Below are positions 3,259 through 53,591 of a stretch of DNA of 53,592 nucleotides, piece after piece. The DNA is from a virus. Taxonomy: Duplodnaviria; Caudoviricetes. Position numbers and translations under genes: made by a program. The first letter of the stretch is position 1, and each line of letters begins with the position of its first letter. The DNA lies in IMG/VR virus record IMGVR_UViG_3300043399_000721, positions 1 to 53,592 of that record; one strand, written 5' to 3'. The notes below the pieces were generated by a model. The model searched no databases, was not told the DNA's origin, and saw nothing but the letters and a program-made list of their open reading frames with translations.

Positions 3259-3491
3259 GCTGTCAGACTTCTAAGAATGTTCAGATTTGCCTTTTCCTTT
3301 GCTCTATGTCTTTTCTGTCAGGCATATACTTTGGGACTCAAGTGACTCTTGATCGCTTTCAGGATGAAAAAGCTCATAATGCAAAGATTCTGGAGAACTG
3401 CGTTCAGGTTATGACAGGTACTATTCCAAAACATCTTGATTTTTCTAAAAAGAAGAAGAAGAAGAAAGATGTGAAGATCGCAAAAAATTAA
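3255..3491 (+). CDS. Hypothetical membrane-anchored protein with Lys-rich tail
   Basis: 78 aa; its TAA stop forms the last 3 bases of the left target-site duplication. Confidence 0.6.
   Translation: MSCQTSKNVQICLFLCSMSFLSGIYFGTQVTLDRFQDEKAHNAKILENCVQVMTGTIPKHLDFSKKKKKKKDVKIAKN
3484..3491. repeat. Left copy of 8-bp target-site duplication AAAATTAA
   Basis: Directly precedes the first base of the 2,586-bp repeat; identical to 41491-41498. Confidence 0.8.
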
Positions 3492-3539
3492 GAGGAATAT
3501 TCTGGGTGTTGGGTTCTTTAAAGACCGATAAATAAATTT

Positions 3540-4262
3540 ATGAGGCACGAGATGGAGCATTGCAGTTGCTACGAGTATGGGTTTAATCTGTCACACATGG
3601 AGGCTAATCATGTTTCATGCGCTGACTGTGGTCGAATTGTTTACCGCAAATTGAACGCACTCTTTGTTGAGAAAGAAGGGGTTTATTCAAACCTCCCAAT
3701 GGTTGAAGCATGGGACATTGAAAGAAACGCAATGAATTGCAGGAATGAACTTCCCGCTGTTGCTCATCCCCCTTGTGAAAGATGGGGGCGGTACTGGTTC
3801 GGTGGCCCATCGGTAAAAGAACGGAAGAAACTTGGAGATGATGCCGGATGTTTTGCTTTTGCTCTCTGGTACGTTCGCACCTATGGCGGAATTTTAGAGC
3901 ATCCTGAAGCGTCTCATGCGTTTAAGTTTTTCGGTCTTCCGTTACCAGAAAGAAAAGGTGGATGGAGCTCGCCGGATATTTATGGCGGCCGTTCTTGTTG
4001 TGTTGAACAGGGGCACTATGGGCACCCGGCAAGAAAAGCTACTTGGCTTTATGCCGTGAAGACAGATTACCCGGACCTAATTTGGGGGCCATGCGAAGGA
4101 AAGATGAGAATGGACGAAGGTTTTCACTCAAAGGAGCAGGCCAAGGAAATGAGAGCTCGCCCTGACTATGTTCCGGTTAAAAGATTATCGGCATACGAGA
4201 GACTGGCAACACCAGTCGATTTCAGAGACTTACTAATTAATATTGCAAGAACGGCAAGGTAA
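3540..4262 (+). CDS. Divergent phage DNA (cytosine-5) methyltransferase-like protein, copy 1
   Basis: ALFV, VAHPPC (motif IV-like PC), GGILEHP (motif VI-like) and YGHPARKATWLY (motif VIII-like); Cys-rich N-terminus. Confidence 0.6.
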   Translation: MRHEMEHCSCYEYGFNLSHMEANHVSCADCGRIVYRKLNALFVEKEGVYSNLPMVEAWDIERNAMNCRNELPAVAHPPCERWGRYWFGGPSVKERKKLGDDAGCFAFALWYVRTYGGILEHPEASHAFKFFGLPLPERKGGWSSPDIYGGRSCCVEQGHYGHPARKATWLYAVKTDYPDLIWGPCEGKMRMDEGFHSKEQAKEMRARPDYVPVKRLSAYERLATPVDFRDLLINIARTAR

Positions 4263-4283
4263 ATAATCTTAGGTAACTATCCC

Positions 4284-4312
4284 TTGACGACAAGTAGGAA
4301 TTAGTTTATACT
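4284..4312 (+). promoter_or_regulatory. Sigma70-type promoter starting inside the IS left end
   Basis: TTGACG-17 nt-TATACT, then GAGG RBS before dcm; repeated at 39697-39725. Confidence 0.75.
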
Positions 4313-4331
4313 GATTACAGAGAGGTAGAGT

Positions 4332-5144
4332 ATGCGAATTTTAAGTCTTTTTGATGGAATATCTTGTGGGCAAATAGCCTTAAACAAAGCCGGAATTTCA
4401 AATTATGACTATCTGGCTTCGGAAATAAATCCTTATGCTATTAAAGTTACACAGCATAATTTTCCAAAAACTATACAGCTTGGAGATGTAACCAAGATTA
4501 AAGGGACGGAATTAGGTAAAGTTGATTTATTGATTGGTGGAAGTCCTTGCCAAGGGTTTAGCTTTGCTGGGAATCAACTTAACTTTGAGGACGAAAGGTC
4601 TAAATTATTCTTTGAATACGTTCGACTTCTTGAGGAGACAAGCCCTAAATATTTTCTTTTAGAGAATGTTAAAATGATTAGGGAGAGCGAAGACATAATA
4701 ACTAAAATGTTGGGCGTTAAGCCTATTAAAATAAATAGTTCTCTTGTATCTGCACAAAACAGAGAGAGGCTGTATTGGACTAACTTACCCCATCCTACAA
4801 TTCAGGACAGAGGATTGGTTTTAAAGGATGTTTACGAACCTATTTCTGGCACCCCGTTAAGTGATACAACCGCTTCCAGACCTAGAACTATTCGTAATTA
4901 TAGGGGGTTAAATCAAAAATCTTCTTGTCTCTTGGCTACTATGTATAAGCTCAGTCAGAGTAATGGAATGACGGTCATTCAAGACAATGGAAAGTTACGC
5001 TGTATTACCCCCTTAGAGTGTGAAAGACTTCAAACCGTTCCTGATAACTATACTTCAATACTATCCAATACTAGAAGATACGAAGTGTTAGGTAATGGTT
5101 GGACAGTTGACGTTATAGTTGAATTTTTTAAGGGGTTGGCATGA
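4332..5144 (+). CDS. dcm: DNA (cytosine-5) methyltransferase, IS passenger, copy 1
   Basis: LSLFDGISCG (I), GGSPCQGFS (IV), FLLENV (VI), QNRERLYW (VIII), ECERLQT (IX), LGNGW (X). Confidence 0.95.
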   Translation: MRILSLFDGISCGQIALNKAGISNYDYLASEINPYAIKVTQHNFPKTIQLGDVTKIKGTELGKVDLLIGGSPCQGFSFAGNQLNFEDERSKLFFEYVRLLEETSPKYFLLENVKMIRESEDIITKMLGVKPIKINSSLVSAQNRERLYWTNLPHPTIQDRGLVLKDVYEPISGTPLSDTTASRPRTIRNYRGLNQKSSCLLATMYKLSQSNGMTVIQDNGKLRCITPLECERLQTVPDNYTSILSNTRRYEVLGNGWTVDVIVEFFKGLA

Positions 5145-6022
5145 GGTACACTATCAAAAATTTCATCAAAGACTTTCCAGACGATAAGACTTGCCTAGCC
5201 TTCATCTTTAAAAACCGTTACCCAAATGGACTAACTTGCCCTAAATGTGAAAAGACTTCATTTCATCCGGTCGAAGGTCGTAAGTCCTATGCTTGTTCAT
5301 GCGGTTATCAAACCTATCCGACTGAAGGAACTATCTTTCATAAATCACCTACGCCATTAACTCTTTGGTTTCATGCTATTTTCCTCATGTCTCAATCCAA
5401 AAATGGGGTAGCCGCTAAGGAATTAGAAAGACAGCTTGGAGTCACATATAAAACGGCTTGGAGAATGGCGAAACAAATTCGGATGCTTATGGGACAAAAT
5501 CCAGACCCATTAGGCGGTAATGAAATCATTGAAGCCGATGAAGCGTATATTGGCGGTGTTCGCAAGGGTAAACGAGGGAGAGGTGCCGCTGGTAAAACTC
5601 CTGTATTTGGAGTTGTTGAAAGGCAAGGTGAAATCAAAACTCAAGTAGTTAAAGACGTTAGGCAAGCGACAATTATTCCATTGTTTTCAAACATGGTGCC
5701 AGCACAAGCCGTTATTGTTACGGATGAATCAAGCATCTATAACAAGGTAACTAAACTAGGGCATTTGCACGAAACTATTAACCATGGAAACGGTCAGTAC
5801 GGTCGAGGAGATGTTCACACCAATACTATTGAAGGCTTTTGGTCACAGTTTAAGCGTTCGGTTCACGGGACTTTCCACGCTGTTTCACCGAAGTATTTGC
5901 AGTCTTACCTTGACGAGTTTTCTTTTCGCTACAACCATCGGAAGTCTTCGCAGTCTTTGCCTGTTTTGATGTTTTCAAGGGTTGGGACGCTTTTACCAAA
6001 AGACGAAAAAATTGCTTCATAA
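5141..6022 (+). CDS. IS1595-family (ISXO2-like) DDE transposase, copy 1
   Basis: N-terminal Zn ribbon CPKC...CSC, HTH LERQLGVTYKTAWRM, IEADEAYIGG, IVTDE, HTNTIEGFWS, YLDEFSFRYN. Confidence 0.95.
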   Translation: MRYTIKNFIKDFPDDKTCLAFIFKNRYPNGLTCPKCEKTSFHPVEGRKSYACSCGYQTYPTEGTIFHKSPTPLTLWFHAIFLMSQSKNGVAAKELERQLGVTYKTAWRMAKQIRMLMGQNPDPLGGNEIIEADEAYIGGVRKGKRGRGAAGKTPVFGVVERQGEIKTQVVKDVRQATIIPLFSNMVPAQAVIVTDESSIYNKVTKLGHLHETINHGNGQYGRGDVHTNTIEGFWSQFKRSVHGTFHAVSPKYLQSYLDEFSFRYNHRKSSQSLPVLMFSRVGTLLPKDEKIAS

Positions 6023-6348
6023 GGATTTTTAATATGAATACGAAGGATGGTCAACTTGTCACTAAGGGATACTTACCTAAAGTTATGCGGGCAAGAAGCT
6101 ATGAGACCGGCTTATGTTATAACCATCTGCAAAGAAGCACTAAAAGAAGTGGAATAAGCGCGTCCGGTAAGCTCCATTCGGGATTTGGAATCGCTGACAG
6201 ACCGATTGTGCAACGTCTGTCTTCCATAATTATTCAATATACTGCATAATTAATCACAGAAAACATTCACAATACTCGATAAGAACTACCGCTGAAAAAC
6301 TTTCAATCTGAACTCCCCTGTACCGTTTGTGGACTCTCTCTTCCCGGG

Positions 6349-38753: not shown

Positions 38754-38934
38754 GCGAGCAGAGATGATTAGAATGGCATTAGCTTCATTAATGAAAGACT
38801 TGGGTGAGGAAGAGAAGCTCGACTTCCTCACTGAGGTTTTTCTGATCACAGAGGATATTCGGCACGAACTGTGTTATCCCGAGGAAGAGCTAACGGAAGA
38901 ACCCGAGGAATATTCTGGGTGTTGGGTTCTTTAA
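38734..38934 (+). CDS. Hypothetical acidic protein whose 3' end lies inside repeat copy 2
   Basis: Last codons (EEYSGCWVL-stop) are encoded by the first 30 bp of the repeat. Confidence 0.55.
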   Translation: MMKSTVRRAEMIRMALASLMKDLGEEEKLDFLTEVFLITEDIRHELCYPEEELTEEPEEYSGCWVL

Positions 38935-38952
38935 AGACCGATAAATAAATTT

Positions 38953-39675
38953 ATGAGGCACGAGATGGAGCATTGCAGTTGCTACGAGTATGGGTTTAAT
39001 CTGTCACACATGGAGGCTAATCATGTTTCATGCGCTGACTGTGGTCGAATTGTTTACCGCAAATTGAACGCACTCTTTGTTGAGAAAGAAGGGGTTTATT
39101 CAAACCTCCCAATGGTTGAAGCATGGGACATTGAAAGAAACGCAATGAATTGCAGGAATGAACTTCCCGCTGTTGCTCATCCCCCTTGTGAAAGATGGGG
39201 GCGGTACTGGTTCGGTGGCCCATCGGTAAAAGAACGGAAGAAACTTGGAGATGATGCCGGATGTTTTGCTTTTGCTCTCTGGTACGTTCGCACCTATGGC
39301 GGAATTTTAGAGCATCCTGAAGCGTCTCATGCGTTTAAGTTTTTCGGTCTTCCGTTACCAGAAAGAAAAGGTGGATGGAGCTCGCCGGATATTTATGGCG
39401 GCCGTTCTTGTTGTGTTGAACAGGGGCACTATGGGCACCCGGCAAGAAAAGCTACTTGGCTTTATGCCGTGAAGACAGATTACCCGGACCTAATTTGGGG
39501 GCCATGCGAAGGAAAGATGAGAATGGACGAAGGTTTTCACTCAAAGGAGCAGGCCAAGGAAATGAGAGCTCGCCCTGACTATGTTCCGGTTAAAAGATTA
39601 TCGGCATACGAGAGACTGGCAACACCAGTCGATTTCAGAGACTTACTAATTAATATTGCAAGAACGGCAAGGTAA
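38953..39675 (+). CDS. Divergent C5 methyltransferase-like protein, copy 2
   Basis: Identical translation to 3540-4262. Confidence 0.6.
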   Translation: MRHEMEHCSCYEYGFNLSHMEANHVSCADCGRIVYRKLNALFVEKEGVYSNLPMVEAWDIERNAMNCRNELPAVAHPPCERWGRYWFGGPSVKERKKLGDDAGCFAFALWYVRTYGGILEHPEASHAFKFFGLPLPERKGGWSSPDIYGGRSCCVEQGHYGHPARKATWLYAVKTDYPDLIWGPCEGKMRMDEGFHSKEQAKEMRARPDYVPVKRLSAYERLATPVDFRDLLINIARTAR

Positions 39676-39744
39676 ATAATCTTAGGTAACTATCCCTTGA
39701 CGACAAGTAGGAATTAGTTTATACTGATTACAGAGAGGTAGAGT

Positions 39745-40557
39745 ATGCGAATTTTAAGTCTTTTTGATGGAATATCTTGTGGGCAAATAGCCTTAAACAA
39801 AGCCGGAATTTCAAATTATGACTATCTGGCTTCGGAAATAAATCCTTATGCTATTAAAGTTACACAGCATAATTTTCCAAAAACTATACAGCTTGGAGAT
39901 GTAACCAAGATTAAAGGGACGGAATTAGGTAAAGTTGATTTATTGATTGGTGGAAGTCCTTGCCAAGGGTTTAGCTTTGCTGGGAATCAACTTAACTTTG
40001 AGGACGAAAGGTCTAAATTATTCTTTGAATACGTTCGACTTCTTGAGGAGACAAGCCCTAAATATTTTCTTTTAGAGAATGTTAAAATGATTAGGGAGAG
40101 CGAAGACATAATAACTAAAATGTTGGGCGTTAAGCCTATTAAAATAAATAGTTCTCTTGTATCTGCACAAAACAGAGAGAGGCTGTATTGGACTAACTTA
40201 CCCCATCCTACAATTCAGGACAGAGGATTGGTTTTAAAGGATGTTTACGAACCTATTTCTGGCACCCCGTTAAGTGATACAACCGCTTCCAGACCTAGAA
40301 CTATTCGTAATTATAGGGGGTTAAATCAAAAATCTTCTTGTCTCTTGGCTACTATGTATAAGCTCAGTCAGAGTAATGGAATGACGGTCATTCAAGACAA
40401 TGGAAAGTTACGCTGTATTACCCCCTTAGAGTGTGAAAGACTTCAAACCGTTCCTGATAACTATACTTCAATACTATCCAATACTAGAAGATACGAAGTG
40501 TTAGGTAATGGTTGGACAGTTGACGTTATAGTTGAATTTTTTAAGGGGTTGGCATGA
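39745..40557 (+). CDS. dcm: DNA (cytosine-5) methyltransferase, copy 2
   Basis: Identical translation to 4332-5144. Confidence 0.95.
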   Translation: MRILSLFDGISCGQIALNKAGISNYDYLASEINPYAIKVTQHNFPKTIQLGDVTKIKGTELGKVDLLIGGSPCQGFSFAGNQLNFEDERSKLFFEYVRLLEETSPKYFLLENVKMIRESEDIITKMLGVKPIKINSSLVSAQNRERLYWTNLPHPTIQDRGLVLKDVYEPISGTPLSDTTASRPRTIRNYRGLNQKSSCLLATMYKLSQSNGMTVIQDNGKLRCITPLECERLQTVPDNYTSILSNTRRYEVLGNGWTVDVIVEFFKGLA

Positions 40558-41435
40558 GGTACACTATCAAAAATTTCATCAAAGACTTTCCAGACGATAA
40601 GACTTGCCTAGCCTTCATCTTTAAAAACCGTTACCCAAATGGACTAACTTGCCCTAAATGTGAAAAGACTTCATTTCATCCGGTCGAAGGTCGTAAGTCC
40701 TATGCTTGTTCATGCGGTTATCAAACCTATCCGACTGAAGGAACTATCTTTCATAAATCACCTACGCCATTAACTCTTTGGTTTCATGCTATTTTCCTCA
40801 TGTCTCAATCCAAAAATGGGGTAGCCGCTAAGGAATTAGAAAGACAGCTTGGAGTCACATATAAAACGGCTTGGAGAATGGCGAAACAAATTCGGATGCT
40901 TATGGGACAAAATCCAGACCCATTAGGCGGTAATGAAATCATTGAAGCCGATGAAGCGTATATTGGCGGTGTTCGCAAGGGTAAACGAGGGAGAGGTGCC
41001 GCTGGTAAAACTCCTGTATTTGGAGTTGTTGAAAGGCAAGGTGAAATCAAAACTCAAGTAGTTAAAGACGTTAGGCAAGCGACAATTATTCCATTGTTTT
41101 CAAACATGGTGCCAGCACAAGCCGTTATTGTTACGGATGAATCAAGCATCTATAACAAGGTAACTAAACTAGGGCATTTGCACGAAACTATTAACCATGG
41201 AAACGGTCAGTACGGTCGAGGAGATGTTCACACCAATACTATTGAAGGCTTTTGGTCACAGTTTAAGCGTTCGGTTCACGGGACTTTCCACGCTGTTTCA
41301 CCGAAGTATTTGCAGTCTTACCTTGACGAGTTTTCTTTTCGCTACAACCATCGGAAGTCTTCGCAGTCTTTGCCTGTTTTGATGTTTTCAAGGGTTGGGA
41401 CGCTTTTACCAAAAGACGAAAAAATTGCTTCATAA
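40554..41435 (+). CDS. IS1595-family transposase, copy 2
   Basis: Identical translation to 5141-6022. Confidence 0.95.
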   Translation: MRYTIKNFIKDFPDDKTCLAFIFKNRYPNGLTCPKCEKTSFHPVEGRKSYACSCGYQTYPTEGTIFHKSPTPLTLWFHAIFLMSQSKNGVAAKELERQLGVTYKTAWRMAKQIRMLMGQNPDPLGGNEIIEADEAYIGGVRKGKRGRGAAGKTPVFGVVERQGEIKTQVVKDVRQATIIPLFSNMVPAQAVIVTDESSIYNKVTKLGHLHETINHGNGQYGRGDVHTNTIEGFWSQFKRSVHGTFHAVSPKYLQSYLDEFSFRYNHRKSSQSLPVLMFSRVGTLLPKDEKIAS

Positions 41436-41490
41436 GGATTTTTAATATGAATACGAAGGATGGTCAACTTGTCACTAAGGGATACTTACC

Positions 41491-41498
41491 AAAATTAA
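41491..41498. repeat. Right copy of 8-bp target-site duplication AAAATTAA
   Basis: Abuts the IS right end; identical to 3484-3491. Confidence 0.8.
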
Positions 41499-41512
41499 AC
41501 ATGGAGACCATT

Positions 41513-41887
41513 ATGAAACTTATTCTCATCGCCTTTGTTTTCGCCATTATGACTCTCTCATTTTCTCGGGCATCCTGTGACATTGAGACACTTAAAAAAG
41601 ACGCCCTGGTGCCATTTTCCATGCCCATGAAGGTTGATGGCTATTTCACGGGGACAGGGATCGCTACCTTTACCGATGTTATCTACCCGGACTACCCAGT
41701 AACGATCAAGGATGAGAGCTATCTCATTTTGGTTATGAAGGTGGACATCAAGTTTCCTCACGAGGAGAAACCCCTCAAGAGAAAATTCATGACGATCCGT
41801 CCAGTGGACATGGCATCCTGCACTCTGGGGCAATTTGAAATGGGTGATGTTTTTGGAAGCTCAGTAAGTGAAGAGAAATTGCCATAA
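41513..41887 (+). CDS. Secreted hypothetical protein (outer virus)
   Basis: GGAG RBS, then MKLILIAFVFAIMTLSFSRA signal peptide; two Cys. Confidence 0.7.
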   Translation: MKLILIAFVFAIMTLSFSRASCDIETLKKDALVPFSMPMKVDGYFTGTGIATFTDVIYPDYPVTIKDESYLILVMKVDIKFPHEEKPLKRKFMTIRPVDMASCTLGQFEMGDVFGSSVSEEKLP

Positions 41888-41897
41888 TTGATCATAC

Positions 41898-41972
41898 AGG
41901 GGTGTCGGCAAGTGGTAAGCCAACTGATTTTGATTCAGTCATACGCAGGTTCGATCCCTGCCTCCCCTACCA
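41898..41972 (+). tRNA. trnQ: tRNA-Gln(TTG)
   Basis: Acceptor AGGGGTG/CTCCCCT, D arm GGC-AAGTGGTAA-GCC, anticodon arm ACTGA-TTTTGAT-TCAGT, T arm GCAGG-TTCGATC-CCTGC, encoded CCA. Confidence 0.93.
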
Positions 41973-41991
41973 TTTAAAAAGGAGTAGAACC

Positions 41992-42153
41992 ATGAGAACA
42001 AGTGACATCATTCTTGTCATAATTTTATTTTTTGTCGCCTGTACGCTAGTCAAGGAGTCAAACGAAGACGTTTATGACTGCGATAGGGCCGGAGGAGTTC
42101 TTTCAAGAGGCGTCTGCATCAAGAAAGAGTCAATTATTAAAAATAGGGAGTAG
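41992..42153 (+). CDS. Small membrane protein/lipoprotein
   Basis: AAGGAG RBS; MRTSDIILVIILFFVAC. Confidence 0.65.
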   Translation: MRTSDIILVIILFFVACTLVKESNEDVYDCDRAGGVLSRGVCIKKESIIKNRE

Positions 42154-42155
42154 AT

Positions 42156-42368
42156 ATGAATCGAGAACTGGAAGGCGGTCATTATTTATCCCCAGACGGG
42201 TCAAAGATCGTTGAAATACGAAAAATCCGCGAGGGTCAGGATTACAAGTTTCAGCATAGATACATGTTCAATGCCGGATTTCTTCAAAGGGCCGAGTCAG
42301 AAGCTTGGATAAGACGGAATTTACGGGGCTGGATACGTTTAGATACTAAATCGGGAAAGCGAAGATAA
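42156..42368 (+). CDS. Hypothetical protein
   Basis: 70 aa, GGGAG RBS. Confidence 0.6.
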   Translation: MNRELEGGHYLSPDGSKIVEIRKIREGQDYKFQHRYMFNAGFLQRAESEAWIRRNLRGWIRLDTKSGKRR

Positions 42369-42369
42369 A

Positions 42370-42430
42370 GCATCCTTCGGATGCCAAAGGCGGATTCTCC
42401 GCCCAAAGAAGCCTCTCCGAGGCTTCCAAT
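42370..42430. repeat. Left triple-hairpin array with CAAA linkers
   Basis: GCATCC-TTC-GGATGC CAAA GGCGGA-TTC-TCCGCC CAAA GAAGCCTC-TCC-GAGGCTTC CAAT. Confidence 0.9.
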
Positions 42431-42444
42431 TCAGGAGAAATGAT

Positions 42445-42798
42445 ATGAAAGAGTTTAGCTCGCAAGTCTTTAAAGATTCAGTGAATTTGTCACAAACAAT
42501 CCTGAGAATGGTAGGAGCAATGGACAATACGCTAAAGTTTACGATTGGGCAGCAGATGATCCGTTCATCAGTATCAATCCCTTCTAATATATCAGAAGGA
42601 TTCGGAAGAAACTCGGATGCTCAAATATTAAACTTTCTCAATATTGCTCACGGCTCATGCTGTGAACTAATTTCTCAAATCATGATTATTGATGGCATGA
42701 TTATCGGAGATTCAACATTTGTTGCGGAAGAACTTATGAAAGATACTTTATCAATAAAAGATCAATTAAGGAGACTTTGTGTTCACTACAAGAAATAA
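42445..42798 (+). CDS. Four-helix-bundle protein (23S rRNA intervening-sequence protein family; Avd-like fold)
   Basis: QMIRSSVSIPSNISEGFGR...FLNIAHGSCCELISQ family signature; AGGAG RBS. Confidence 0.92.
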   Translation: MKEFSSQVFKDSVNLSQTILRMVGAMDNTLKFTIGQQMIRSSVSIPSNISEGFGRNSDAQILNFLNIAHGSCCELISQIMIIDGMIIGDSTFVAEELMKDTLSIKDQLRRLCVHYKK

Positions 42799-42810
42799 CT
42801 GTTATAATGG

Positions 42811-42865
42811 CTTGGCGGGCGCCGCCCGCTTTGGCGCCAAAGGCGCTTTGGACTCCGAAGGAGTC
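42811..42865. repeat. Right triple-hairpin array with TTTG linkers
   Basis: CTTG GCGGGC-GCC-GCCCGC TTTG GCGCC-AAA-GGCGC TTTG GACTCC-GAA-GGAGTC. Confidence 0.9.
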
Positions 42866-42869
42866 TTCT

Positions 42870-43283
42870 ATGAGTGAACAAGGGGTATTCCGCATGAACA
42901 ATTCAGAATTATTTGATCAGTTTTTTAAAAAGTTTATTGAAGAAAAATTTCCTGGGGTTGATCTTCAGGCACCAGGCCTGAAGCAAATGAAAGAATTTCT
43001 TCGCTTTGGATTTAAAGGTGCTTGTATCTTTAAGGACGATGAAGTGAAGGCCCTTAAAGAGGAAATCTCTCGTTTAGAAGTATCCGTGCATAATGAGCAG
43101 ACAAAGCTCATTGAAATGGAAGCTCAATATTGCAAAGACAAAGCACTTCTCATTAAAGGTCTCAAGTTTTACGCTGGCCAGAAGGGTCATGGTGCTTTTG
43201 AGCAAGATGGCTCCAAGAAGAGGGCGCTGGGTGAGTATGCTTCAACGATCTTGAAGAAGGTTGATGCTGGAGAGGATGCTTAA
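42870..43283 (+). CDS. Hypothetical coiled-coil phage protein
   Basis: Start at 42870 or 42894; LIKGLKFYA...D...GEYASTIL C-terminal motif. Confidence 0.6.
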   Translation: MSEQGVFRMNNSELFDQFFKKFIEEKFPGVDLQAPGLKQMKEFLRFGFKGACIFKDDEVKALKEEISRLEVSVHNEQTKLIEMEAQYCKDKALLIKGLKFYAGQKGHGAFEQDGSKKRALGEYASTILKKVDAGEDA

Positions 43284-43289
43284 TCAAGG

Positions 43290-43505
43290 TTAAGCGGATT
43301 TCTTAATGTTCAGATAAAAGTTTGTAGCATTGTTAGCAATAACGAGAACCCCTGAAAGAAGTAAAGCTGATTTCAGGGGTTTTTCATTTGTGCGCATGGA
43401 AGCATAGATAAGTAATGGCCCTAGAAAGAGGACATCAACGACTCGAAGAAATTGAGACTTCTGAATTTCGGTTAAGTTTGAGTTATTATCTATTTCTCGA
43501 AACAT
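43290..43505 (-). CDS. Small two-TM viral membrane protein
   Basis: QFLRVVDVLFLGPLLIY...IANNATNFY. Confidence 0.65.
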   Translation of the reverse strand: MFREIDNNSNLTEIQKSQFLRVVDVLFLGPLLIYASMRTNEKPLKSALLLSGVLVIANNATNFYLNIKKSA

Positions 43506-43511
43506 CTTCCC

Positions 43512-44156
43512 TCACTTCTTTTTTCTCGCCTTCTTGGTCGCTTTTCTGGCCGCTGCTGCGGCCTTTTTAGTATTCTTCACCCACTTGCCCATCTTGCCTT
43601 TTTTCTTCTTTCTTGTGGCCTCTTCTTCTTCTGGGTCGAGTTCTTCCCACGCTTCTTCTGGGAGGTAGCGATCTTTCTTTTTGCTGCCTGGGGCGTACTG
43701 CCACTTTGCCCTGGTCCATGTCGCCAGATCGTTATCAGCTCTCTTTGGCCCTAGATACTCTCCACCGCGATCCTTGTAGAGCTTTACTGCATATTGCATG
43801 GCCCTTGCGCTATGGCCACCCATTTTCTTAACAGCGTCTTTTTTTACTTTTTCCCAGAGCTTTTCGTCAGTACGAGTAGCAACCTTGCGAGGATTCTCTT
43901 TATGGATACGTGCCAGCTTGGAATAATAACGAGGGTCTTCGGCAAGATGATCCAAGGCGATCTCTTCTGCGATGTCCTCATCGTCAGTATGCTCCATCTC
44001 GACCTTGAGCCCTTTTTTGAATTCCTCCGGATCAACATCATCCGGATCAAGATCATCCCCCAGGCCACCAAGAAGTTTCTGATCACCTCGAAAAACAAAA
44101 TATCCTAAAGTGAGACCGAGTGAGACGAGAAGAATATTTTTAAGGACAGAATTCAT
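43512..44156 (-). CDS. Membrane-anchored basic protein with DUF5661-like and DUF5872-like segments
   Basis: N-terminal TM; GLKVEMEHT...IALDHLAEDPRYYSKL; LWEKVK...SARAMQYAVKLYKDRGGEY. Family names recalled, not searched. Confidence 0.7.
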   Translation of the reverse strand: MNSVLKNILLVSLGLTLGYFVFRGDQKLLGGLGDDLDPDDVDPEEFKKGLKVEMEHTDDEDIAEEIALDHLAEDPRYYSKLARIHKENPRKVATRTDEKLWEKVKKDAVKKMGGHSARAMQYAVKLYKDRGGEYLGPKRADNDLATWTRAKWQYAPGSKKKDRYLPEEAWEELDPEEEEATRKKKKGKMGKWVKNTKKAAAAARKATKKARKKK

Positions 44157-48683: not shown

Positions 48684-51677
48684 TTACGCTTTAACGTAGT
48701 TAAAATAAATAATCTGATCTTGCTCCAGAGGAGAAGCCCCTGCTGACGCTGATGGCCCTTGGAAGATGAGGCGAGTGACTGATCCAGAGTTATCCTGCTG
48801 GAAGTCAGCGTCAGCGTCAGCACCAAGAACCACGATCAAGTTTACGCGATCAGAAGAACAGATGACTGATCCAAGGCTTGCCTTGAAAGAAAGATCAATA
48901 TACTGGTTTGAAATATCGGCAGCAGAAAGGACAACTTTCTGAACTTCATAATCAGTACCAGCAGCGATTCTTGAATCAACGTATGCCTTAGTAGCAGCGT
49001 CTTGAGCAAGAGATGGATCAGCAAGATTAGAAATCTTGGCATTAAGCATATCGACTGAACCATCAATCTGTCTGAAGGCCGGACGGATTTCAAGATCAAC
49101 TTCGCCACGGAAGGCCGGAGATTCAATTCCAAGGCTTTCAACCATGTACTGAACACCATTAACAGCAGCACCAGAATCAGAACCGAATGAAGAAGTTAAA
49201 ACTTGTTCAGAAGGACTCTGAGGGCCTACGTTAAGGCCTGAGACAGTAAGGAGCTTAAATCTTGGAAGCTCAGGGTGAGCTACTGGCTCCTGACCAAAGT
49301 AAACGATACACTTCTGTCCTACTGCTGGAGAAGCACCGTCAAATCCAGAGTAAACCTGACGTGATTTAGCAAAGCCTGGGATTGCGTCGCCAGAGCCAGT
49401 TGGTACTGTATAGACTGCTAGAATCGGAGATCGTACAACATCAAAAGTCATCACTGCGTAAGCAGAGAAGTCTCCAAGTGTAATATTCGCCTGGTTTAGA
49501 CCATCGAAGAAATACCAGTTAATCTTCTGGCCAGCAACAGAGTTCTTGTAATACCAACCATGACGAGGATTAGTCGATGAAGTTGGGTCAAGCTGTCCTG
49601 GTTGTCCGTCAGCATAAACAGAGGCAAAGCTATTGTATGCACTAGCAGCAATTATTTCGCTTCTCTCTTCAAGAACGATAACTTCTGCTTGAATAGCATC
49701 CATTTCCGACTCAAGGGTATCAACTCTTCCATCAAGAGAGATAATATCTGCTTGAGCTTGATCCATTTCAGATTCAAGAGTAGAGACTTTAGGCTCAAGA
49801 ATATCAAGTCTGCCATCAAGAGAAATAATGCTTGCTTGAGCAGCATCCATTTCTGATTCAAGAGTAGAAACCTTTGGCTCAAGAATATCAAGTCGTCCAT
49901 CGAGAGATAAAATGTCTGATTGAGCTTGAGACATTTGAGGAATGAGAACATTCACATCTGTCTGAAGCGCTAGGATCGCTGATTGAGCGGCATCCATTTC
50001 AGATTCAAGAGTATCAACTCTACCATCGAGAGAAATAATATCTGCTTGGGCCGTATCCATTTCAGATTCAAGAGTAGAAATTCTGCTTATAACAGCAGGA
50101 GCAACTTGAAGTTGGTTAGAGCCATTGATTGAAATGGTTGAGCTATCAACGAGAGCGTTTACTTCACCAGAAGAAATGGAGATCGCGTCACCTCCAACGA
50201 GGCCAGCGCCAGAAATCTGTGCATCTACATAGGCCTTAGATGCCGCATCTTGTGGATCAGTAGGATCAGCGATATCAACGATCTTATTTGATTGCATATC
50301 AAGCTGAGAGTTGATTTCTACGATCCGTGAAGAAAGGGCAATTTTACCACGAACGCCAGTACCAGAAACTGCCGCTGTTTCAAGAGAAATATCACCACCG
50401 TTTACATTAGATTGAAGGCCATAGGCATCAGACTGGATAAAGATGGATTTACCTGTAGTGTCTCCGGCAGGATCGTATGATGCTGCGACAGACGCCAGGT
50501 ACATGTCAGTACCGGAAGACGCATGAACGTAAGCGAAATTGAAGAACCATTGAGTTCCCCAGTCACCGCTGTTATGAGCATTAGTGGTCTTCGGCTTGAT
50601 CATTTGAGTTGAGAGGTCTTGAGAAAGCTTAGGAATCAGAGGAACAAGGTTTCCGCCGTTAGGATTCTGCGCTCCCTGCTTAGAGCCGGATACAAGATCA
50701 AAGTCGGCATAAGAAGAAGGACCATCAACGATCAGGTTTTCAGACTGGAAGCTTCTCAGGAAGGATGCGCAACGTCTTCCGAAGTCATTAACAGTAGTCG
50801 TCTGGGTTAAGTTTGTGCAATATCCGCCTGTAGCATTAAGAATTGTGGCCATACCACCATTAGGATGCTGGTTCAGGTTGATGTTGCTATAACAAATGTT
50901 ATTAGAGAAGACACCGACGTTAATACCTGAAATGGTGATGGCACCAAAGAAGATTGTTCCATCAAACTGCGCTTGAGCAATAGCATTGTTGTAACCATAC
51001 ATGTTCAACGTAGAAACAAACTGACAGCGGCTAAAGTAAAGTTTACCAGCAGCAGAGGTTACAGTTGTCCAGTTGAAGTTAGCGGCAGAAAGGAAAGTCA
51101 CTTCCACAGCACCCGATCTGTTATCAAAGCTGCTGTTAGCCGAGAACGACGCATCCATGGATACTGCGCCTGTGATACGAACTGACTCACGGCTTTGTCC
51201 AATAAGATAGACGTTTGGCTTAATAGATACTGATGCTTCTGTATAATTTCCGGCCTGGATTAGGATGGCGTATCTCTTTGACGGAGAGTTGTCCGAAATA
51301 GCTGCCATGGCCGCTGAAACTGTGAGAAATGGATTGTGTTGTGACCCATCCCCGGTCAGATCATTTCCTGATTTAGCAACATAGATTTCCTGGGCATAGT
51401 CAAAAGTCTCCAGGGCGTCAAGACGGGCATCAAGTGCTGTCTGGATAGCATCTACTTGTTGCTTTGATACGGCCTGAAGTGCTTCGACAGCATCACCCGG
51501 AAGGTATGGCTGCTTGAGAAGCTGAAGCTGGTTAGAGGAATCAAGCTTAAGAAGGTCTTGGCTTGAAAGCCCGTCAGCAGCTTTTGATTTAAGAGCTAGA
51601 TTGTTTTCAAGGTCAATCTGAACCGAGCCTACTTGGTCCGTTCCGATATACTTTTTAGAAAGTTTAGTCTCTGACAT
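48684..51677 (-). CDS. Large trimeric fibre/spike protein (outer virus)
   Basis: 997 aa: beta-helix-type domain homologous to 14729-17320, DAA.KAYVD necks, long heptad repeat. Confidence 0.85.
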   Translation of the reverse strand: MSETKLSKKYIGTDQVGSVQIDLENNLALKSKAADGLSSQDLLKLDSSNQLQLLKQPYLPGDAVEALQAVSKQQVDAIQTALDARLDALETFDYAQEIYVAKSGNDLTGDGSQHNPFLTVSAAMAAISDNSPSKRYAILIQAGNYTEASVSIKPNVYLIGQSRESVRITGAVSMDASFSANSSFDNRSGAVEVTFLSAANFNWTTVTSAAGKLYFSRCQFVSTLNMYGYNNAIAQAQFDGTIFFGAITISGINVGVFSNNICYSNINLNQHPNGGMATILNATGGYCTNLTQTTTVNDFGRRCASFLRSFQSENLIVDGPSSYADFDLVSGSKQGAQNPNGGNLVPLIPKLSQDLSTQMIKPKTTNAHNSGDWGTQWFFNFAYVHASSGTDMYLASVAASYDPAGDTTGKSIFIQSDAYGLQSNVNGGDISLETAAVSGTGVRGKIALSSRIVEINSQLDMQSNKIVDIADPTDPQDAASKAYVDAQISGAGLVGGDAISISSGEVNALVDSSTISINGSNQLQVAPAVISRISTLESEMDTAQADIISLDGRVDTLESEMDAAQSAILALQTDVNVLIPQMSQAQSDILSLDGRLDILEPKVSTLESEMDAAQASIISLDGRLDILEPKVSTLESEMDQAQADIISLDGRVDTLESEMDAIQAEVIVLEERSEIIAASAYNSFASVYADGQPGQLDPTSSTNPRHGWYYKNSVAGQKINWYFFDGLNQANITLGDFSAYAVMTFDVVRSPILAVYTVPTGSGDAIPGFAKSRQVYSGFDGASPAVGQKCIVYFGQEPVAHPELPRFKLLTVSGLNVGPQSPSEQVLTSSFGSDSGAAVNGVQYMVESLGIESPAFRGEVDLEIRPAFRQIDGSVDMLNAKISNLADPSLAQDAATKAYVDSRIAAGTDYEVQKVVLSAADISNQYIDLSFKASLGSVICSSDRVNLIVVLGADADADFQQDNSGSVTRLIFQGPSASAGASPLEQDQIIYFNYVKA
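49680..50085 (-). repeat. Intragenic heptad coiled-coil repeats
   Basis: TLESEMD.AQ..I.SLDGR recurs several times; DNA motif TCCATTTCAGATTCAAGAGT recurs. Confidence 0.85.
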
Positions 51678-51693
51678 ATTTTCTCCTCTTGAG

Positions 51694-51721
51694 AAAAAGA
51701 GAGGGGCACATGGCCCCTCTC
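51694..51721 (-). terminator. Rho-independent terminator
   Basis: Minus strand GAGAGGGGC stem followed by TTTTT. Confidence 0.75.
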
Positions 51722-51773
51722 AGTAAGTGATAAATATGGCCAGACGATTAACGCCTGGCCGGAGGGAAACAAA

Positions 51774-53591
51774 TTAGTCGATCACACACTGGATATAGAG
51801 GGTCTGACCTGCTTCAAGGGCCTCTGCTCCAGCGGAAGCAGAAGGTCCACCGGGGATGAAAGTGATACGAGTCATACCACCTGCACCACCAGTAAGATCA
51901 ACACTGTAATCCAGACCTTCCCAGAGCCATACTCGCTGACTTACACCGATCTGACAAGATTGAGCAAGAGCTACAACCGAAAGATCAACGTACTGGTTAG
52001 TAATGTCACCAGCAGAAAGCGTGATAGCTTGCTTGTGGAAATCTGTACCAGCAGAAATCTGAGCATCTACGTAGGCCTTTGTCGCTGCATCTTGTGCTGC
52101 AACAGGATCAGCAAGATCAATGATCTTGTTAGACTGCATATCAAGCTGAGAGTTGATTTCAACAATGCGAGAAGTAATAGCGATCTTACCACGCACACCT
52201 GAAACAACTGAACCAGTCGAAATGAAAATGTCTCCAGATGCTCCTGAGCCAGCATTGTTACCAGTTTGAATATTTACAAGTCCAGTAGCGGCAAAAGAAG
52301 CAGCATTGGTGATAGCACCAGAAGTAACCACTGCATTACCAGTAGCACCTGTTCCGGAGTTCTGACCTGAAGTAAGAATGGCAAGGCCTGAAGCAAAGCT
52401 TCCTGTTCCCGCACCAGAGCTAACAACAACTGAACCAGACACAGCAGCAGACTGAGGAGCGGTAGCAAATGCAAATGCTCCTGTTCCAATTGGCCCTGAC
52501 TTCAGGGAAACAATGCTTACACCGGCAGGAATAGCTGTGGTTTCAAGGTTGTCAAGGTTAGTGTTTGCCTTACCTTCAAAGGCCGTGATCGCCTGACCGA
52601 GAGGAATTGCATCAGAGAGTTCAGAAGCTTCACCAACACCTGTGATTCTCTGGCCGCTCATATCCAGAACACCTGTCATTGGACGAGTGCCATCAAGCTT
52701 CAGGAAGGTGAGGTCTTCAGCTTCAAGCGCAGTAATATCACTTTCAGCAGTATCCATGCGTCCTTCGAGGGCATTGATGTCGCTTTCAGCAGTATCCATA
52801 CGGCCCTCAAGGGCGATGATGTCTGCCTGAGCAGTATCCATCTCGGACTCAAGTGTGCCAATTCTTCCCATGACTGCTGGATCAACACGAAGCTGATTGC
52901 TACCATCAAGAGAAATAGTCGTATTGTCGTATCTGACGTTAAATTCAGTACCGTCAAGTGAGAGGCCATCACCAGCGGTGTATGTACCAGCTCCGGAGAA
53001 CTGAACAAACTGAACTGGATCAGTACCAACAACAGCTACAACATCAATTTCAACCCATCCAGTATCAGCATACTGAGTACCATCTTGAACGAATACAAAG
53101 TCACCGCCGGCCATTTCGGCTGGGGTATTGTAGTCCAGGGCGCGGGTGAAGACTGTGCCGAGGGAGCCGTTAGAGCCAACAGTATAAATACCGTTATGGG
53201 CCTTATTGACCTGACCGTTGACGATTACTCGGTCGCCAGCGATGAATGTGTAGCCATCATAAGCTGTGAGTGCAACGGAGAGAGTCAGTGTAGCACCAAC
53301 ACCATCAGCGCCGTTATCGTAGCTGACTGTACCGCCTGAAGCAGACTCGAGGGTTTGGTTAATGATGACTTTTGCTGGAGCATGAACGTGAAGACCTTCT
53401 GCTACTGCGTCCACGTATTGCTTATTGGCCGCATCACGAGCATCAACAGGATCAGCAAGGCCAGTGATCTTGTGGTGAACGCCGATAGAAGGCATCATGC
53501 TGAGATCACCTGTCATGGCGCGAGAACCGTCGAGCTTAACAAATGTCAGGTCTTCGGCCTGAAGATCAGAAATGTCGGACTCAACCGCATC
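51774..53591 (-). CDS. Trimeric fibre protein, 5' end beyond the window
   Basis: Frame open to window end; DAANKQYVD, GQVNKAHNGIY, FVQFSGAGTYTAGDGL fibre motifs; heptad repeats. Confidence 0.85.
   Translation of the reverse strand, partial: DAVESDISDLQAEDLTFVKLDGSRAMTGDLSMMPSIGVHHKITGLADPVDARDAANKQYVDAVAEGLHVHAPAKVIINQTLESASGGTVSYDNGADGVGATLTLSVALTAYDGYTFIAGDRVIVNGQVNKAHNGIYTVGSNGSLGTVFTRALDYNTPAEMAGGDFVFVQDGTQYADTGWVEIDVVAVVGTDPVQFVQFSGAGTYTAGDGLSLDGTEFNVRYDNTTISLDGSNQLRVDPAVMGRIGTLESEMDTAQADIIALEGRMDTAESDINALEGRMDTAESDITALEAEDLTFLKLDGTRPMTGVLDMSGQRITGVGEASELSDAIPLGQAITAFEGKANTNLDNLETTAIPAGVSIVSLKSGPIGTGAFAFATAPQSAAVSGSVVVSSGAGTGSFASGLAILTSGQNSGTGATGNAVVTSGAITNAASFAATGLVNIQTGNNAGSGASGDIFISTGSVVSGVRGKIAITSRIVEINSQLDMQSNKIIDLADPVAAQDAATKAYVDAQISAGTDFHKQAITLSAGDITNQYVDLSVVALAQSCQIGVSQRVWLWEGLDYSVDLTGGAGGMTRITFIPGGPSASAGAEALEAGQTLYIQCVID

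Follow-up and report, generated by a model that had tools for sequence, protein, structure and literature searches.

Some bacterial 23S ribosomal RNA (rRNA) genes are interrupted by intervening sequences (IVSs) that carry an open reading frame (ORF), as in helix 45 of Coxiella burnetii and in Leptospira. In one account (PMC4990558), this ORF, of the PF05635/S23p family, lies between terminal inverted repeats, which in Coxiella form a 28-bp stem that is cut by RNase III. That account describes the distribution of these IVSs as sporadic, suspects horizontal transfer and leaves their origin unresolved. Their mobility, present or past, is an old suggestion, and the protein family has been called functionally uncharacterised ever since it was first met in rRNA IVSs. 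Here we describe a PF05635 gene in a tailed phage, IMG/VR record IMGVR_UViG_3300043399_000721. The window analysed is this entire record of 53,592 nt (53.6 kb), a complete virus contig (rated 100% complete). The gene is enclosed by two arrays of small GC-rich hairpins, which a reading of the sequence alone had taken for the borders of a candidate undescribed element. We find that the locus is very probably an IVS-type gene cassette in which two inverted terminal arms frame one PF05635 gene, each of them a short tandem array of an oriented unit, 5'-(C/T)TTG plus GC mini-hairpin-3', which points outward on both sides of the gene.

Anatomy of the phage cassette

Three hairpins stand on each side of the gene (Table 1), and direct reading bore out all the sequence details that had been claimed for the two arrays. 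The linkers of the left arm are the reverse complements of those of the right arm, and the stem sequences differ. Read outward from the gene, on the minus strand, the left-arm units consist of ATTG, TTTG and TTTG, each followed by a hairpin, with the loops GGA, GAA and GAA. The outermost hairpins hp1 and hp6 do share the inverted core TCCTTCGGA/TCCGAAGGA; these 9 nt and the linkers are the only complementarity between the arms in the window, the remaining stems being different. The fit between the neighbouring genes is as tight as had been stated: hp1 begins 2 nt after the upstream stop codon and hp6 ends 4 nt before the downstream ATG.

The window contains 20 triloop hairpins with at least 60% GC and a stem of at least 5 bp. 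All five of those with a stem of at least 6 bp fall within the two arrays; in 200 first-order shuffles, such hairpins occurred anywhere in the window at a mean of 1.39 per 53.6 kb, with a maximum of 6. Further hairpins of the array type were not found in the contig. The arrays have a GC content of 60% and 71%, compared with 35% in the enclosed gene and 42% in the window. Among the contigs of two runs of one freshwater sample, possibly the source of the phage, one of 12,071 nt covers positions 41461-43900 without differences. Searches with an exact 25-mer and an exact 22-mer from the arrays gave no match; the 22-mer, hp6 with its linkers, is absent from the viral and genome contig collections.

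The product of the enclosed gene matches PF05635 with 76.8 bits (cut-off 33.8) and TIGR02436 with 81.9 bits (cut-off 24). The AlphaFold2 model of the 117-aa protein shows four helices at a predicted local distance difference test score (pLDDT) of 94.4, and Foldseek aligns it with 2GSC and 2RLD at template modelling (TM) scores of 0.85 and 0.80. Family models and structure comparison thus bear out the four-helix bundle that had been read from the sequence. The nearest solved relatives were deposited with five chains each. A model of four copies reached an ipSAE of 0.69, against 0.00 for the best of three controls, with two distinct faces per subunit, a contact agreement of at least 92% and a partner pLDDT of at least 84; among reference cases, 20 of 30 solved homo-pairs and 1 of 23 single chains attain this mark for self-association. 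Self-association of the 117-aa protein is supported by this model, a pass that may reflect the solved five-chain relatives.

The sequence-only reading had also stated that no hairpin is followed by a U-tract. This is so on the left array's sense strand, whereas TTTG or TTCT comes after every right-array hairpin, and on the minus strand a consensus scan called hp1 terminator-like, with the tail TTTATCTT. Features of intrinsic terminators are limited to these UUUG/UUCU tails in the right arm and to the minus-strand call for hp1. The motif directly before the right arm that resembles an extended -10 element was not called by a promoter scan, which made 4 calls in total against 4.1 expected from shuffles. 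In RNA, hp6 would sequester the putative Shine-Dalgarno sequence AAGGAG of the downstream ORF.

Table 1. Positions of the cassette, its hairpin units and the bordering ORFs in the window
Feature	Position	Strand	Description
Upstream neighbour, 70-aa ORFan	42156-42368	+	Left boundary of cassette
Left arm	42370-42430	.	Three units: hairpin followed by CAAA/CAAA/CAAT
hp1	42370-42384		GCATCC-TTC-GGATGC, then CAAA
hp2	42389-42403		GGCGGA-TTC-TCCGCC, then CAAA
hp3	42408-42426		GAAGCCTC-TCC-GAGGCTTC, then CAAT
Shine-Dalgarno-like AGGAGA	42433-42438	+	6 nt before ATG of four-helix-bundle gene, outside hairpins; direct reading
Four-helix-bundle gene, 117 aa	42445-42798	+	PF05635/TIGR02436; sole copy in contig
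TGTTATAAT, extended -10-like	42800-42808	+	Directly before right arm; consensus match only, no -35
Right arm	42811-42865	.	Three units: CTTG/TTTG/TTTG followed by hairpin; plus-strand loops GCC, AAA, GAA
hp4	42815-42829		GCGGGC-GCC-GCCCGC, CTTG before
hp5	42834-42846		GCGCC-AAA-GGCGC, TTTG before
hp6	42851-42865		GACTCC-GAA-GGAGTC, TTTG before
AAGGAG in 3' arm of hp6	42858-42863	+	6 nt before downstream ATG (42870); direct reading
Downstream neighbour, 137-aa ORFan	42870-43283	+	Right boundary of cassette

Relatives of the cassette and the family-wide frame

A protein search recovered a closer clade (P0002-P0010) with 48-66% identity to the window protein. The closest homologues that could be retrieved, all from metagenomes, make up two distinct cassettes of the hairpin type: L094 (59% identity) and L095/L096 (56%; the same cassette in two records). 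Both display the covariation that had been proposed as a check, hairpin-CAAAG...CTTTG-hairpin with changed stems: three to four hairpin-CAAAG units lie upstream of the gene and three to five CTTTG-hairpin units downstream. The number of units differs between the arms of L094 (4 vs 5), where hp6 also occurs in two exact copies. The ORFs next to the two cassettes are unrelated to those of the window and to each other; searches of the neighbours in L094 and L096 against PHROGs gave nothing informative, the single borderline hit (E 0.00093) being to a family without known function. In the 751,896 nt compared, arrays of at least three units occur only beside this gene. This supports the view that the gene and its arrays form a conserved unit. 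The phage-type clade was not found in the genome contig collection, where all 23 loci have at most 54% identity.

The units of these cassettes share more than the linker. In outward orientation, the 20 units comprise 110 Watson-Crick pairs, one G.T pair and no mismatches, as delimited by a unit finder that admits at most one non-Watson-Crick pair per stem (one 3-bp unit is probably spurious). On the outward strand the loop is GAA in 11 of the 20 units and TTC in none, and 10 of the 11 GAA loops are closed as C-GAA-G. The pairing in outward orientation and the GAA bias indicate that the unit is an oriented module, 5'-TTTG plus hairpin(GAA)-3', directed away from the gene on both sides.

Just upstream of its left arm, L096 has a near-consensus promoter (TTGACA...TATAAT). 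In L094, a perfect inverted repeat of 20-21 nt is formed by the innermost units. L094 also contains a second inverted pair (1632-1661 and 2337-2390), formed by a (GGGAAC)6 run between the left arm and the gene and an inverted partial copy, (GTTCCC)2 plus about 13 further matching bases, 690 nt upstream of that run; this pair encloses the upstream 200-aa ORF and the left arm.

Homologues without flanks of this kind had been named as evidence against the element. Most homologues indeed lack the hairpins, but they carry plain inverted tandem repeats in their place. In the 72 loci that could be evaluated out of 80 from distant cellular homologues, at 30-56% identity, strict hairpins occur at background level, in a scan that misses short stems and plain repeats. 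Around 99 loci, CAAAG occurs upstream at 0.55 per 150 nt versus 0.08 for CTTTG, and CTTTG occurs downstream at 0.44 versus 0.22 for CAAAG, against a background of 0.21. In relatives from Flavobacteriaceae and Balneola, CAAAG...CTTTG repeats frame the gene without hairpins. We compared the 120 nt upstream of the gene with the reverse complement of the 120 nt downstream, using displaced segments as controls. Among 98 loci, taken without de-duplication (seven, for example, are from Balneola), exact inverted matches of at least 9 nt were present in 64, compared with 4 and 6 in the displaced controls, and matches of at least 12 nt in 35, compared with 0 and 1.

The matching arms consist of tandemly repeated units that are specific to a lineage, for example GAGTCGA, AGTCTGG, GGGCTAA, GTATTGA and AGATTGC. 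In 114 unique loci, Tandem Repeats Finder detected repeats in the upstream arm 87 times and in the downstream arm 83 times, compared with 22 and 21 control windows. The period of the upstream arm is 7, 14, 21 or 28 in 58 of these 87 arms and 8, 16 or 24 in 16. The family unit measures about 7 nt, with a conserved core of 4-5 nt and 2-3 variable bases. Small GC hairpins are no more frequent in arms across the family (0.49 and 0.51 per arm) than in controls (0.52 and 0.63), which places the self-folding arms in the clade of the window only and suggests that the hairpin acts as a replaceable spacer. On this sequence comparison, the arrays of the window are a variant of the family frame, in which the 2-3 variable bases appear to have become a mini-hairpin and the core is CTTTG/CAAAG. 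Five genomes hold 6-11 copies of the gene each, and every paralogue has its own unit, with its two arms matching each other.

The arm units of nine Acidobacteriota loci (L021, L023, L035, L036, L042, L055, L065, L067 and L068) all contain GAGTC, with GACTC in the other arm. The same pentamer, perhaps by coincidence, forms the stem of hp6 in the window.

As a proxy for gain and loss we used the gmk-nadD junction of a Flavobacterium locus (L018) in 30 species. The gene is present at this junction in 9 species, the other copies being 68-73% identical to that of L018, and all 8 evaluable junctions with the gene have inverted arms of TAGTNNT heptads. Among the junctions without the gene, 13 of 20 retain an inverted array with abutting arms, compared with 4 of 28 coding controls of equal length; the units of these arrays are CACAAAG/CTTTGTG or of the TAGT type. 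The closest relative at this junction (NadD 96% identical) has neither the gene nor the arms. Gene and arms thus come and go together, as a block that can decay to gene-less hairpins. At nine Flavobacterium junctions (L257, L258, L259, L261, L264, L265, L269, L278 and L280) the gene-less inverted tandem arrays, 65-114 nt long, fill the junction, and several of them use CACAAAG/CTTTGTG, the same core as the linkers of the window.

Possible roles of the arms

We favour a reading in which the arms of this IVS-type cassette are DNA-level ends, probably single-stranded and perhaps bound by the cassette's own, putatively ring-forming protein, and give it a probability of roughly 45%. The arms would act as DNA and not as an mRNA stem. 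When an arm becomes single-stranded, during replication, recombination or repair, each unit would snap into a C-GAA-G mini-hairpin, and the folding of the hairpins would return the CTTTG cores to about the spacing found in plain heptamer arms. Each end would then carry the same regular series of cores, the two series lying on opposite strands. Such a row could be a platform for a multi-subunit binder, the candidate being the putatively ring-forming protein encoded between the arms, and two end complexes could keep the gene and its arms as one heritable, transferable block. The single-stranded form, the binding of the protein and any mechanism of mobility are inferred; the mechanism as a whole, DNA-level single-stranded arms read by a multimer, is tentative and stands somewhat below an even chance.

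The geometry of the units is one argument for this reading. In duplex DNA, a hairpin of 13-19 nt would add 13-19 bp between cores. The hairpin could replace a spacer of 2-3 nt without separating the cores only if the arm is single-stranded, which fits a platform of single-stranded DNA. The orientation of the units is another. The GAA-loop unit is mirrored onto opposite strands, and in a sense transcript the left-hand loops would read UUC. C-GAA-G is an exceptionally stable DNA mini-hairpin; we know of no special stability of UUC loops.

An RNA-level analogue of the rRNA IVS, which we consider unlikely, would have the arms, or the linkers together with hp1 and hp6, pair in the operon transcript and be cut by RNase III, releasing a hairpin-capped, stable monocistronic mRNA and leaving the mRNAs of the neighbours intact. 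The precedent is the ORF-bearing rRNA IVS itself, bordered by inverted repeats with a 28-bp stem cut by RNase III (PMC4990558), and the cassette is co-directional with both of its neighbours. In the minimum free energy fold of 42360-42880 (z = -3.44), hp1 is paired to hp6 and a CAAAG to a CUUUG, and the perfect inverted repeat of the innermost L094 units would suit such a stem. In the window, however, the arms are complementary over no more than the shared core and the linkers, and local hairpins dominate. The gain from pairing the two arms with each other overlaps that of non-cognate controls: cognate arms gain -5.7 (window), -21.3 (L094) and -9.9 kcal/mol (L096), compared with 0 to -10.8 kcal/mol for non-cognate arms, and the value for L094 is due to its perfect 20-bp innermost repeat. 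Among the arm mismatches of 94 loci, scored on the sense strand, there is no excess of G.U-compatible pairs over A.C pairs (111 vs 127, p = 0.33). A selected RNA stem would be expected to favour G.U, a test that is weak for tandem repeats pairing in several registers. The sense-strand hairpins likewise lack G.U pairs, the sole non-Watson-Crick pair being A.C on that strand. The GAA preference of the left arm sits on the antisense strand, where a sense transcript could not use it.

The reading of the arms as single-stranded DNA ends has to be weighed against several observations, to which the weakness of the G.U test and the presumed stability of C-GAA-G also belong. The comparison of hairpin arms draws on just two independent cassettes, L094 and L095/L096. 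Paralogues within a genome are old, with a maximum of 48-60% identity in four genomes, and so give no sign of recent bursts of transposition. The Flavobacterium indel has exchanged the intergenic segment in its entirety, and no empty site, excision joint or target-site duplication was seen there. For the window cassette, neither an excision joint nor a target-site duplication was seen in contigs, and the empty site that the sequence-only reading had expected, a joint skipping the cassette, did not turn up in the contigs of two runs, which drop rare variants. The cassette, lying in a co-directional row of genes, is surely transcribed; this position, the placement of hp6 over the next ribosome-binding site and the promoter in L096 make RNA-level roles possible.

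The arrays might instead be ordinary phage punctuation around a moron gene, which is improbable: stabilisers of mRNA, weak terminators or insulators and, in hp6, a translational brake, with no link to the protein or to mobility. This would suit the AAGGAG of the downstream ORF held in hp6, the UUUG/UUCU after each right-arm hairpin, the terminator-like call for hp1 on the minus strand and the TGTTATAAT motif ahead of the right arm. The other intergenic regions of the 53.6-kb phage are nevertheless free of such hairpins, runs of three T are short for intrinsic termination, and the promoter calls do not exceed those in shuffles. The mirrored unit was met again solely beside homologues of this gene, and there in unrelated surroundings, and the family-wide inverted tandem arms show that the frame belongs to the gene.

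The mechanism put forward in the sequence-only reading, a ladder of four-way junctions in which left CAAA and right TTTG linkers pair, the gene is looped out and a circular or deleted form excises itself, is very improbable, for although the linkers are exact reverse complements and conserved in L094, L095 and L096, the 4-bp A/U rungs are weak and cannot all match in L094 with its 4 and 5 units, the arm-pairing gains given above do not set cognate arms apart, the energy model never yields a ladder and takes its predicted inter-arm pairs from opened hairpins, and no cassette-skipping joint appeared in the contigs of the two runs, from which rare variants are dropped.

Phage context and comparison with known systems

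The contig, a complete tailed-phage genome, encodes a terminase, a major head protein, a tail-fibre-like protein and a DNA polymerase subunit. A tRNA-Gln gene (anticodon TTG) lies at 41898-41972, between a 2.6-kb repeat and the cassette; an 83-aa ORF at 41902-42153 overlaps it and is probably spurious. The repeat is an exact direct one (3478-6095 and 38891-41508), the second copy of which ends 0.9 kb upstream of the cassette. It encodes a 240-aa ORF (phrog_12600), an IS1595-family transposase and a C-5 cytosine DNA methyltransferase. From the freshwater sample it assembles separately as a contig of 2,586 nt whose depth is roughly double that of the flanking contig, which implies that both copies are real. 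The closest relatives of the transposase (L119, L120 and L121; 73-77% identity) are on contigs of 2.8-8 kb that were binned in metagenome-assembled genomes of Rhabdochlamydiaceae, Pseudomonadales and Promethearchaeota and have the transposase alone in common with the phage; this scattered binning suggests mobile or viral DNA in wrong bins. On the minus strand of 48684-53516, two large ORFs of 997 and 580 aa contain in-frame tandem repeats of 42, 63 and 84 nt and have repeats of 67-155 nt in common. Their repetitive make-up resembles that of fibre-like or coiled-coil proteins.

No relative of the phage was found in the viral contig collection with the DNA polymerase subunit, the two bordering ORFs (137 and 70 aa) and the PF05635 protein or profile as queries. 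A neighbouring 177-aa ORF led to 13 distant loci, all without arrays of at least three units. GenBank phages match the record at the tRNA only, their terminase matches are below 60% identity, and tblastn found no homologue of the cassette protein in 50,697 GenBank phage records.

Several known elements and RNAs were considered and, for the most part, rejected. Repetitive extragenic palindromes (REPs), which with their mosaic elements (BIMEs) are associated with RAYT transposases, are small, GC-rich, clustered extragenic palindromes thought to be single-stranded DNA hairpins for an HUH enzyme, and they stabilise mRNA. They are imperfect palindromes of 20-40 nt with a GTAG head and hundreds of dispersed copies; the phage hairpins are perfect palindromes of 13-19 nt, at one locus, tied to one gene, in a cassette without a transposase. 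An IS200/IS605-type element would have an HUH TnpA and end hairpins on the same strand; this cassette encodes a PF05635 protein only, and its ends are mirror-symmetric on opposite strands. A diversity-generating retroelement (DGR) is rejected as well, since the whole record has no match to PF00078 and so lacks a reverse transcriptase. A pair of terminators is improbable: on the sense strand the left-arm hairpins are followed by CAAA, and those of the right arm have no more than the UUUG/UUCU tails. In a search of 42300-42930 against Rfam, Gut-1 (RF01706) included, the sole match was RAGATH-25 at 12.5 bits (cut-off 49) and E 3.5; with no other covariance-model match even at E up to 10, Gut-1 RNA and other Rfam families are ruled out. 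The best Rfam match for L094 was tfoR at 18.9 bits (cut-off 70).

TRAP is a ring protein that reads regularly spaced (G/U)AG repeats on a single strand. By analogy, the phage cassette combines a short core with 2-3 variable spacer bases in the family unit, three to six or more repeats and a putative oligomeric ring protein; unlike in TRAP sites, the cores of the two arms, read on one strand, are complementary to each other and not identical. The protein Avd acts on nucleic acid as a pentamer, and the sequence-only reading had related the fold of the phage protein to it. The resemblance of fold stands (Avd, PDB 4DWL, also in the DGR ribonucleoprotein 8UB7; TM 0.73/0.77 to 4dwl_C), whereas the match is weak (E 0.2) at 6% identity.

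Within its own family, the phage cassette resembles those with heptamer arms in that the gene is framed by mirrored tandem arrays, here with 3 + 3 units pointing outward. Heptamer arms have units of about 7 nt and are complementary over several units; in the phage the unit measures 17-23 nt and the left and right stems differ, so that the arms fold on themselves and not on each other, and the carrier is a virus. The locus thus adds a cassette that rides in a complete phage genome and a natural variant in which a perfect mini-hairpin is the spacer of every arm unit while the core and the mirror layout are kept. As this substitution would be geometrically neutral only with a single-stranded arm, it could reveal what PF05635 proteins and their repeats do. 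A far wider proposal, doubtful for now, is that the arms of these cassettes work in general as single-stranded DNA whose core rows are read by the cassette's own ring protein. The end complex would then be the machinery of an unrecognised class of small mobile cassettes without a conventional transposase, with phages as vehicles, and the class could be the source of ORF-bearing rRNA IVSs and of short-period inverted repeats between bacterial genes.

Like the 23S rRNA IVSs of PMC4990558, the phage cassette has a PF05635/S23p protein between terminal inverted repeats. Unlike them, it does not lie in an rRNA gene: the only Rfam hit above the gathering threshold in the window is the tRNA-Gln, and its neighbours are protein ORFs. 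The IVS described there has one continuous stem of 28 bp, whereas each phage arm is a row of self-folding mini-hairpins joined by a core of 4-5 nt. In the literature searched we found no description of flanking arrays around this gene outside rRNA. The element that had been proposed as undescribed is better called a hairpin-for-spacer variant of a cassette already met in 23S rRNA, the IVS type. The cassette is real, conserved and informative, and belongs to a known cassette type.

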